From positions 9,984-73,983 of the forward strand of contig JAWOKS010000002.1 in the NCBI GenBank assembly GCA_033854115.1: a stretch of 64,000 nt of DNA, written 5' to 3'. Each line of letters begins with the position of its first letter. Position 1 is the stretch's first letter. This document shows positions 25,225 through 61,227 of the stretch, piece after piece. Both the position numbers and the translations under genes were made by a program. Under the pieces are notes generated by a model. That model saw only the letters and a program-made list of their open reading frames with translations. It made no database searches and was not told where the DNA came from. This DNA comes from Thermoplasmata archaeon. Its GTDB lineage: Archaea > Thermoplasmatota > Thermoplasmata > Lutacidiplasmatales > UBA184.

Positions 25225-25327
25225 GCAGGTGTAATCTAGTGGTAGGATGTCAGCCCTCCAAGCTGACTACCCGGGTTCGAAACGACGGGCCCGAGCGGCG
25301 CCCGTCGCGGGGCTCCCGGCACCTGCA
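25225..25327 (+). tRNA. tRNA-Gly(UCC) with a 32-nt BHB intron in the T-loop (59/60)
   Basis: Acceptor GCAGGTG/CACCTGC with A73, D-arm ATCT-AGTGGTA-GGAT, anticodon arm TCAGC-CCTCCAA-GCTGA, T-stem CCGGG/CCCGG. The spliced T-loop is TTCGAAT. No CCA is encoded. Confidence 0.75.
25282..25313 (+). other. tRNA-Gly intron (bulge-helix-bulge, position 59/60)
   Basis: CCGGG-TTCG-[AA|A]-CGACGGGC...GCCCGTCG-CGGG-[GC|T]-CCCGG. Two 3-nt bulges flank a 4-bp helix, with cuts after the second bulge nucleotide. Confidence 0.65.
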
Positions 25328-25892: not shown

Positions 25893-25918
25893 GTCCCGCG
25901 CAGGCTCCAGCCCCTCGC

Positions 25919-26002
25919 GCTGAGGTAGCCTAGTCCGGCAAGGCGCCAGCCTTGAAAGCTGGTGGCGGCGACGCCACGGGAGTTCAAATCTCCCCCTCAG
26001 CG
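25919..26002 (+). tRNA. tRNA-Ser(UGA), uninterrupted, long variable arm
   Basis: Acceptor GCTGAGG/CCTCAGC with G73, D-arm GCCT-AGTCCGGCA-AGGC, anticodon loop CTTGAAA, 15-nt variable arm, T-arm GGGAG-TTCAAAT-CTCCC. Confidence 0.95.
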
Positions 26003-26122
26003 TCGGGCCCCGCGTCGGGAGCACGGGGGTGGGGTCCCCGCACCTTCCCTGTCGTTCCGTCCGCCTCACGGGCGCCGAACGGTGTTCGGAGGGAACCGCC
26101 GTTCCGCGGCCCCCGGTGGCGC

Positions 26123-60364: not shown

Positions 60365-60663
60365 CCGGGCCCACGGCGACCTCGACGCACCGGCCGGCCG
60401 AGGCGACGGTGGGCGAGGGGACCGAGGTCCAGAAGGTCGTCCGGTCGCTGAGCGACCTCGCCGACGACGCGAGCGTGCCCCGCAACGTCCGGCGGGGGGC
60501 CCTCAGCGCGAAGGAGGAGCTCTCGAAGCCGAAGGTCCCGCTCGACGTGCGGATCGCGAGCGCCGTCTACGTCCTCGACGACCTCGCGAACGACCCGAAC
60601 CTCCCGACCCACGGCCGGACGGCGATCTGGTCGATCATCTCGAACCTGGAGAGCCTCCAGTGA
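60361..60663 (+). CDS. UPF0147 family protein
   Basis: ATGA overlap. DDASVPRNVRRGA...LDVRIASAVYVLDDLANDPNLPTHGRTAIWSIISNLE matches the UPF0147 pattern. Confidence 0.75.
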   Translation: MTGPTATSTHRPAEATVGEGTEVQKVVRSLSDLADDASVPRNVRRGALSAKEELSKPKVPLDVRIASAVYVLDDLANDPNLPTHGRTAIWSIISNLESLQ

Positions 60664-60744
60664 CCCCTCGTCCCGTCAGGCTGAAATACGGCGGTCCCGT
60701 AGACCGCGACCGGAGCCGGAACGGGCCCGTAGCTCAGTTCGGTC

Positions 60745-60773
60745 GGCCGACCGGAGCCCCCGGCGGCCCGGCA
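60745..60773 (+). other. tRNA-Lys intron 1 (D-loop, relaxed BHB; boundaries approximate)
   Basis: TCGG-[TC|G]-GCCG...CGGC-CCGG-[CA|C]. The central 4-bp helix is 60739-42/60768-71 and the inner helix is 60746-49/60764-67. The spliced D-loop is AGTTCGGTCCA. Confidence 0.45.
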
Positions 60774-60813
60774 CAGAGCATCTGGCTTTTAACCAGGTGG
60801 TCGGGGGTTCGAA

Positions 60814-60851
60814 CGAGCCGCTCCGCGCGGGGTGCGCGGACGCTCCGGAGC
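60814..60851 (+). other. tRNA-Lys intron 2 (T-loop 59/60, canonical hBHBh')
   Basis: GGGGG-TTCG-[AA|C]-GAGC...GCTC-CGGA-[GC|T]-CCCCC, with an internal hairpin TCCGCGC-GGGGT-GCGCGGA. Confidence 0.65.
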
Positions 60852-61227
60852 TCCCCCCGGGCCCGCGTGGCTCCCCCGAGGTCAGCATGACCCCCGTACG
60901 ACCCCCCGCCGCTCGAAGTCGCCCCGCCGTGCGGCCACGCCCGCGAAGCCGGCGCGGCCGTTCGTCGCGCACCATCTCGCTCCTCCCCACGAGATCCTCA
61001 GCCTGGAGGAATCGACGCGCCTGATCGCCGAGCTCGCGACGCCCGTGGAGCGCCTGCCGAGGATCTTCGAGACCGACCCGGGGCTTCAGACCGACCCGAA
61101 GTACCCGGCCCTCAAGGAGTCCGGCGAGAAGCTCGCGGGCCGGCTCGTGCGGATCCGGCGCACGAGCGCGACGGCAGGCGAAGCGGTCGCCTACCGTGTG
61201 ATCTCCCGGCCGAGCGGGGAGGACTGA
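60832..61227 (+). CDS. rpoH: DNA-directed RNA polymerase subunit H (Rpo5); start codon unresolved
   Basis: Conserved core HHLAPPHEILSLEES...LPRIFETDPG...RLVRIRRTSATAGEAVAYRV. The only in-frame start upstream of the core is GTG 60832, which lies inside the tRNA-Lys gene. Confidence 0.7.
   Translation: MRGRSGAPPGPAWLPRGQHDPRTTPRRSKSPRRAATPAKPARPFVAHHLAPPHEILSLEESTRLIAELATPVERLPRIFETDPGLQTDPKYPALKESGEKLAGRLVRIRRTSATAGEAVAYRVISRPSGED

Follow-up and report, generated by a model that had tools for sequence, protein, structure and literature searches.

A tRNA-Lys(UUU) gene with two probable non-canonical introns upstream of rpoH-rpoB in a Thermoplasmata archaeon

The 64,000-nucleotide stretch of Thermoplasmata archaeon DNA analysed here (contig JAWOKS010000002.1; the whole of it is called the window below) contains at 60723-60865, on the plus strand, what is very probably a working gene for tRNA-Lys(UUU), interrupted by two non-canonical introns of the bulge-helix-bulge (BHB) type. 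The gene is 143 nt long and does not encode the CCA end. Read directly from the sequence, its parts follow one another in the order GGGCCCG-TA-GCTC-[40 nt]-GAGC-A-TCTGG-CTTTTAA-CCAGG-TGGTC-GGGGG-[45 nt]-CCCCC-CGGGCCC-G. The acceptor, D-stem, anticodon arm and T-stem of a lysine tRNA are all present, as had been claimed in an earlier note made from the letters alone (the original prediction). The two overlong loops that it reported measure 40 nt in the D-loop region, where 9-11 nt are usual, and 45 nt in the T-loop region, where 7 nt are usual. The anticodon loop CTTTTAA is uninterrupted, and the gene in the window has no intron at the canonical 37/38 site, again as predicted. We infer from the sequence that the gene is transcribed, that its precursor is cleaved and ligated, and that the product is aminoacylated as tRNA-Lys(UUU).

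Exon 1 (60723-60744 in the register of the original prediction, ending at 60743 in an alternative one) holds the 5' strand of the acceptor, U8 and A9, the 5' strand of the D-stem and the 5' part of the D-loop; its columns are invariant or nearly so among 27 relatives. The D-loop intron, which lies around tRNA positions 20-21, spans 60745-60773 (29 nt, register I) or 60744-60774 (31 nt, register II) and has the relaxed bulge-helix-loop form. Exon 2 (60774-60813) comprises the end of the D-loop, the 3' strand of the D-stem, the anticodon arm with its anticodon TTT at 60788-60790, the variable loop, the 5' strand of the T-stem and T-loop nucleotides 54-59 (TTCGAA). The T-loop intron (60814-60851, 38 nt) falls between tRNA positions 59 and 60 and is of the strict helix-bulge-helix-bulge-helix type (hBHBh'). 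Exon 3 (60852-60865) begins with T-loop nucleotide 60, a T that is invariant in all copies, and continues with the 3' strands of the T-stem and acceptor and the discriminator base G.

The gene is not apparent to the usual software. ARAGORN and Rfam at its gathering score make a single call in the whole window, a tRNA-Ser(UGA) at 25918-26004. The unspliced sequence 60723-60865 is not called by ARAGORN, the intron option included, and a permissive Rfam scan matches the tRNA family only in part, over 60729-60823, with 34 nt inserted in the D-loop and a score of 20.5 bits (threshold, 29); the warning that standard finders may miss the gene thus proved justified for both programs. Removal of 60745-60773 and 60814-60851 leaves the 76-nt sequence that the original prediction had proposed to score, and ARAGORN calls it tRNA-Lys(ttt). 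The 74-nt product of register II is likewise called tRNA-Lys(ttt), and by these calls the exons alone rebuild a canonical cloverleaf tRNA in either register. An intron-less orthologue (L314), which differs from the spliced product of the window in the D-loop only, scores 73.5 bits against the Rfam tRNA family RF00005. When ARAGORN was run with its intron options on the loci of relatives, it returned spurious giant-intron calls only.

Further evidence comes from comparison. Eighty loci anchored on RpoB were collected, giving with the window 73 copies of the gene. RpoB of the window is 94% identical to that of uncultured soil and peat Thermoplasmata metagenome-assembled genomes (MAGs), 89% identical to that of a Candidatus Lutacidiplasmatales MAG and 61-66% identical to those of Methanomassiliicoccales and related lineages, which agrees with the Thermoplasmatota-like gene content noted earlier. 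A gene starting GGGCCCGTAGCTCAG is found at the same place upstream of rpoH in 72 of the 80 loci. Seven others end at a contig edge before the gene site, and one is without the gene; in Candidatus Sysuiplasma (L042) rpoH is present and the tRNA is absent at the locus. The D-loop insert occurs in all 73 copies (25-39 nt) and the T-loop insert in 70 of them (28-66 nt). Twenty-seven copies are exactly 143 nt long; compared pairwise, they have a mean identity of 0.944 over the exon columns and of 0.607 over the intron columns, and such conserved exons with freely drifting introns are what the sequence of a functional gene is predicted to look like.

Pairing was counted for the cloverleaf and the two BHBs on an ungapped alignment of these 27 sequences, with partner-slid and shuffled controls. 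Ninety percent of the paired cells can form a base pair, as against 38-57% when the partners are slid by one to three columns. Seventeen base pairs have changed on both sides, both inner intron helices include compensatory changes, and the observed covariation score was reached by none of 500 shuffles. RNAalifold, which was supplied with no structure, recovers both central BHB helices. The same architecture, with covarying helices, occupies the syntenic site in 72 other genomes, which is far beyond chance. The two-intron layout is not peculiar to the genome of the window and would go back to the ancestor of a large Thermoplasmata clade to which the Methanomassiliicoccales belong. With the same two sites occupied in more than 70 species, the introns appear to be old and stable in position.

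The T-loop insert folds on paper exactly as originally described, with the motif TTCG-[AAC]-GAGC...GCTC-CGGA-[GCT]. The T-stem itself (60803-60807 with 60853-60857) forms the outer helix and is followed by the central helix 60808-60811 (TTCG) with 60846-60849 (CGGA), by the bulges 60812-60814 (AA/C, the slash marking the cut) and 60850-60852 (GC/T), and by an inner helix of 60815-60818 with 60842-60845 (GAGC:GCTC) that continues as 60822-60828 with 60834-60840. In the alignment the pairing of the central helix (columns 86-89 with 124-127) reaches 100%, U-A and U-G replacing each other, and all four of its pairs can form in 67 of the 70 copies that bear the insert. The three copies that lack it (L035, L076 and L079) have a plain TTCGAAT T-loop, as a junction at 59/60 predicts, and the junction can be fixed there because these T-loops are intact. 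The restored loop TTCGAAT of the original prediction is therefore matched by natural insert-free relatives. The predicted structure is a strict hBHBh', equal in geometry to that of a canonical intron with the T-stem in place of the anticodon stem.

The D-loop intron is less regular. All helices named in its motif, TCGG-[TCG]-GCCG...CGGC-CCGG-[CAC], are present: a central helix of 60739-60742 with 60768-60771, a 5' bulge at 60743-60745 and an inner helix of 60746-60754 with 60760-60767, the 3' site lying within an internal loop at 60772-60775. In the alignment, pairing of the central helix (columns 17-20 with 46-49) is again 100%, and 72 of the 73 copies have all four pairs (4/4). Two of its four pairs covary, one as UA in 19 sequences, CG in six and UG in two, the other as CG in 14 and AU in 13. 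This intron does not have the strict hBHBh' form, its internal loop being 3 x 4 nt in register I and 2 x 3 nt in register II. The relaxed form, abbreviated HBh', is a recognised class of archaeal tRNA intron motif.

Two registers compete for the exact junction. Register I, that of the original prediction, pairs TCGG with CCGG, cuts the bulges as TC/G and CA/C, removes 60745-60773 and gives a mature D-loop of 11 nt with one extra A ahead of the D-stem. Register II shifts the helix one pair outward (columns 16-19 with 47-50), so that the 3' bulge abuts the D-stem and a near-invariant G23-C46 pair opens the inner helix; it removes the 31 nt from 60744 to 60774 and leaves the 9-nt D-loop AGTTCGGTA. 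In favour of register II, the D-loops of three intron-less genes (L314, L348 and L354) are all 9 nt long and of the form AGYYNGGYA. Every exon position is fixed apart from the two in dispute (columns 22 and 52), which vary freely. The products of the Methanomassiliicoccales type share a single D-loop in register II and differ at one position in register I, and the 16-50 pair can form in all 35 loci outside the clade of the window. In favour of register I, the same pair forms in only 17 of the 38 copies of that clade, being U.C in the window itself, and the G20-C46 pair is invariant. The junction is thus uncertain by one nucleotide on each side, with register II slightly favoured by the sequences. 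Of the original description of this insert, the relaxed BHB helices stand; the 29-nt intron and 11-nt D-loop are unsettled, and the 31-nt and 9-nt versions have a slight advantage.

The intron-less genes just mentioned are tRNA-Lys(UUU) genes of other Thermoplasmatota. Their exons match those of the window except in the D-loop, and exon 2 of the window is identical to the corresponding part of the L314 and L348 genes. In the other direction, about 20 loci (L038-L041, L043, L045, L047, L055, L057, L065, L070, L072, L073 and L075-L079) also have a canonical 37/38 intron. These genes lie approximately 350-550 nt upstream of rpoB and carry three introns, in the D-loop, anticodon loop and T-loop, save for L076 and L079, which have two, the T-loop intron being absent. 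Their in-silico splice products are called tRNA-Lys(ttt) by ARAGORN. A tRNA-Lys(CUU) paralogue in a Lutacidiplasmatales-like MAG (L303, JAKIWI010000003.1, 4253-4327) is 75 nt long with the D-loop AGTCCGGTCA and has no intron; therefore the introns there are specific to the UUU isoacceptor and not common to all lysine tRNAs.

The tRNA gene is followed on the same strand by rpoH (60887-61227; RNA polymerase subunit H, Pfam domain Rpb5_C) and, from 61235, by rpoB. In most relatives examined, the ATG or GTG of rpoH comes exactly 22 nt past the discriminator base of the tRNA, and a GGAG/GAGG ribosome-binding site is found between the two (60866-60889 in the window). An AT-rich, TATA-box-like sequence, TGAAATAC, occupies 60682-60689 on the plus strand, approximately 34-41 nt upstream of the mature 5' end. 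Most loci of the clade of the window have a box of the TGAAATAC type at this distance, typically as ..ATAGGCTGAAATACG.., and the boxes of the Methanomassiliicoccales are TTTAWATA-like and somewhat further upstream. By its position this box is the probable promoter of the tRNA and, as we infer, of the rpoH operon. A promoter of its own for rpoH would not fit into the 22-nt gap, so the rpoH-rpoB transcript probably has tRNA-Lys as its first unit.

The 5' leader (60701-60722) is moreover complementary to the 3' trailer (60866-60887), with GGAGCC at 60711-60716 facing GGCTCC at 60869-60874. The mean leader/trailer duplex energy is -17.1 kcal/mol versus -12.5 kcal/mol with shuffled trailers, z is below -2 in 28 of the 73 loci, and some relatives (L038-L047, z about -3.5) have helices of nearly 20 bp. 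By analogy with the stems that flank archaeal rRNAs, this pairing may be a processing stem. Taken together, the spacing, the leader/trailer pairing and the TATA-like box suggest that the tRNA is co-transcribed with the RNA polymerase operon.

The same spacing, with no room for a promoter of rpoH's own, and the complementarity seen in many loci could be taken to mean that the rpoH-rpoB transcript opens with a tRNA-like module for processing or regulation, kept for maturation of the mRNA by the splicing endonuclease EndA, RNase P and tRNase Z and not mainly for decoding. We regard this as very unlikely. The exons are those of an ordinary tRNA-Lys(UUU), the same as in free-standing intron-less genes, and the rpoH of Candidatus Sysuiplasma has no tRNA before it. 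A dual role would in any case be compatible with function as a tRNA.

A two-intron tRNA gene calls for a suitable endonuclease. An initial protein search for EndA gave relatives from Methanococcales and DPANN only, and a two-repeat EndA profile then reached proteins of about 350 residues annotated as Thermoplasmata tRNA-intron lyase. One such gene (L156) shares the chromosome OY968769.1 with a two-intron copy of the tRNA-Lys gene (L053), and others, among the matches listed, are in the MAGs that hold L059, L067 and L074. For the clade of the window, EndA was located with a G+C-biased DNA back-translation of the motif VKTGFKYG. It was found in JOPF026, the MAG of the closest RpoB relative (L001/L193), and by the same pattern in the MAGs of L004, L008, L009, L012, L015, L034 and L071. 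Two motif matches in a further MAG, DATJOX01, were considered as two EndA genes and rejected, being the ends of one gene split across contigs.

The EndA of the clade has 354 residues in an N-C-N-C arrangement, with two copies each of the Pfam domains tRNA_int_endo_N and tRNA_int_endo, and aligns over its full length with the dimeric enzyme of Archaeoglobus fulgidus and with a fused Methanopyrus kandleri construct. The catalytic Tyr, His and Lys are kept in the C-terminal repeat, and the Tyr and His are lost from the N-terminal one. The 10-residue crenarchaeal specificity loop (CSL) insertion of the Aeropyrum pernix alpha subunit is absent from both repeats. To judge from these sequences, the closest relatives have a two-repeat enzyme of the homodimeric α'2 type with no CSL. 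A heterotetrameric or ε2 form had been expected by the original prediction, and this is not the form found, although a second endonuclease gene may lie elsewhere in these genomes; nor do the relatives encode the strictly homotetrameric EndA that it had named as telling against the gene.

We propose the following pathway. Transcription would be driven by the TATA-like box, some 35-40 nt upstream of the gene, probably together with rpoH-rpoB, and would yield a 143-nt precursor bearing two protein-spliced introns. The T-loop intron and the T-stem would fold into the strict helix-bulge-helix-bulge-helix, and the D-loop intron would present a bulge of 3 nt, a helix of 4 bp in which G18/G19 take part and, beside the D-stem, an internal loop. 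EndA, in this lineage the 354-residue two-repeat α'2 enzyme, would cut within each bulge or loop, and an RNA ligase would join the exons to a tRNA of 74-76 nt. The exon-joining ligase in archaea generally is RtcB.

Several observations weigh against this reading. The minimum free energy (MFE) fold of the single sequence is -85.2 kcal/mol and that of the proposed structure -74.3 kcal/mol, a gap of 10.9 kcal/mol, and the D-loop BHB is missing from the MFE fold. The D-loop motif is only a relaxed HBh', not a strict BHB, in either register. Local tblastn with the EndA of Methanocaldococcus jannaschii, a query confirmed against PDB 1a79 (371 bits), found no EndA gene in the 64-kb window. The α'2 EndA of A. 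fulgidus is poor at removing a comparable HBh' intron from the D-loop of an M. kandleri tRNA (PMC5829648). Finally, a second, intact tRNA-Lys(UUU) copy may exist in this genome; none from the clade was among the matches listed, which came mostly from other archaea. Because the MFE fold is without the D-loop BHB, we rely on the comparative structure. Alternative folds are to be expected in an RNA so rich in G+C, and correct folding in vivo is assumed; the mismatch is a weakness, which in our view the covariation seen among the sequences outweighs.

The enzymological points bear on the D-loop intron alone, and would allow the T-loop insert to be spliced while the D-loop insert is not removed by EndA, being retained as an expansion or taken out by some other activity. 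The 3' bulge of the D-loop motif is not closed, the A. fulgidus result concerns an enzyme of the same type acting on a similar intron, and the EndA of the clade has no CSL-type insertion. The literature is divided on what α'2 enzymes cut. According to Kaneta et al., non-canonical introns are cut only by (αβ)2 and ε2 enzymes (PMC5829648); a statement in another paper, made with reference to Tocchini-Valentini and co-workers, has the bulge-helix-loop cut by homodimeric as well as heterotetrameric enzymes (PMC8707768). The strict BHB of the T-loop intron is compatible with both views. Such a failure of EndA to remove the D-loop insert is highly improbable. The 4-bp helix and 3-nt bulge of the insert are conserved with covariation in 73 of 73 copies, which points to selection for recognition; a retained hairpin of 30 nt would break the contacts of G18/G19 with the T-loop, and the intron-less orthologues show the expected mature D-loop. 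The conservation of the relaxed motif in 73 species argues that the α'2 enzymes of the clade process it in vivo.

Hardly credible is a decaying tRNA pseudogene with junk inserts such as remnants of integrated elements, which would suit rejection by standard finders and an MFE fold unlike that of a tRNA, but not near-invariant exons (94%) beside drifting inserts (61%), the reverse of the pseudogene pattern, nor BHB helices kept by compensatory changes in 72 other species, identical exons in intron-less orthologues and, among the matches listed, no other tRNA-Lys(UUU) in the clade. An assembly artefact or mobile-element remnant was also considered and rejected, because the exons are conserved and covariation is seen from species to species.

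Multiple non-canonical BHB introns in tRNA genes were reportedly described from Thermoproteales and Thaumarchaeota by Marck & Grosjean in 2003 and by Sugahara et al. in 2007/2008. The split tRNA-Lys(UUU) gene of the window is thus of a kind already known, and one that databases have partly registered in a sister order. Multi-intron tRNAs have been reported mainly from Crenarchaeota, Thaumarchaeota, Nanoarchaeota, Korarchaeota and ARMAN, and the euryarchaeotes described as having them are M. kandleri and Methanothermobacter thermautotrophicus (PMC4033280). Table S7 of tRNAscan-SE 2.0 counts six non-canonical introns and one two-intron gene in three Methanomassiliicoccales genomes, and no three-intron gene across 144 euryarchaeal genomes (PMC8450103). 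That table, from the same wider clade, shows that such introns were registered there before; it is without tRNA identity, position, conservation or endonuclease context, and does not cover the lineage of the window. Beyond these supplementary counts, our searches of the literature gave no account of introns conserved in the D- or T-loop of tRNA-Lys or tRNA-Gly from Thermoplasmata.

The introns of Thermoproteales and Thaumarchaeota (PMC4033280, PMC8450103) resemble those of the window in their BHB junctions, in their placement in D- and T-loops, in occurring several to a gene and in being missed by gene finders. They differ in host and enzyme, since the former belong to TACK archaea with a heterotetrameric endonuclease, whereas the latter are from a Thermoplasmata ("cluster II" euryarchaeote) lineage with α'2 EndA. 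Few tRNA species seem to be affected in the lineage of the window, and the introns there are ancient and position-stable, in contrast to the recent intron proliferation described for Thermoproteales. They do not look as if they had been spread recently by transposition.

A closer parallel is the pre-tRNA-Glu(UUC) of M. kandleri (PMC5829648), a multi-intron gene in which a relaxed HBh' intron at 20b/21, nearly the same D-loop site as in the window, accompanies a canonical intron. In both D-loop introns a single good bulge accompanies a helix of 4 bp, and the 3' side is open. The M. kandleri enzyme is (αβ)2-like and that of the lineage of the window α'2, and the partner intron is canonical in M. 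kandleri, in the T-loop in the window, and both in the T-loop and at 37/38 in about 20 relatives. A eukaryotic nuclear gene has the same three-site pattern as L038-L047 and others; there the enzyme complex is different and the resemblance convergent. What is new here is a lineage from which such introns had not been described before, with clade-wide conservation, three-intron relatives and an α'2 context as modest additions.

The lysine gene is not the only hidden one in the window. A tRNA-Gly(UCC) gene at 25225-25327 (plus strand) has a 32-nt intron of the strict BHB type at 25282-25313, again at T-loop position 59/60, with the motif TTCG-[AAA]-CGACGGGC...GCCCGTCG-CGGG-[GCT]. Rfam gives it 25 bits against a threshold of 29, and ARAGORN calls only the spliced 71-nt product, as tRNA-Gly(tcc). 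The intron is present in 63 of 63 complete metagenomic homologues, in 49 distinct sequences, all of which have the central helix paired at 4/4 positions.

Of the three tRNA genes in the window, at least two accordingly escape both ARAGORN and Rfam at the gathering score. The lineage is widespread in soil and peat, and its MAGs will seem to be without tRNA-Lys(UUU) and tRNA-Gly(UCC), which distorts estimates of completeness and inferences from codon usage. A joint reading of all these data, which we put forward tentatively and with the odds somewhat against it, is that the D-loop intron predates the split of Methanomassiliicoccales, Lutacidiplasmatales-like soil lineages and their relatives, and has been kept ever since alongside a T-loop intron and in some cases a canonical one, for as many as three introns in a gene, in lineages having only an α'2 EndA without the specificity loop. 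If this were true, the relatives would have the first three-intron tRNA genes in a euryarchaeote, and the rule that α'2 enzymes remove canonical introns only would be wrong for this enzyme family. The introns would also be under positive selection, possibly since the RNA polymerase operon transcript has this tRNA as its first unit to be processed. The 73 copies of the Lys gene and the 49 distinct Gly introns form a natural set of variants at two fixed non-canonical sites in organisms bearing α'2 EndA; with two published views on α'2 enzymes and relaxed motifs, nature appears to have run that experiment. Cultured Methanomassiliicoccales offer a testable system if the orthologous gene is confirmed there.

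The window has a G+C content of about 72%. Upstream of the tRNA-Lys gene lie purL and purS, on the minus strand, followed by a UPF0147 gene whose end is at 60663. Downstream, the ATG at 60887 and the Rpb5_C domain of rpoH (frame 60868...61227) are in different reading frames; in the closest relatives examined the two share one. From the tRNA to the domain, no ATG, GTG or TTG occurs in the Rpb5_C frame, which suggests a one-base insertion or deletion in the run of C residues at approximately 60890-60906, either a homopolymer error of the assembly or a real frameshift.

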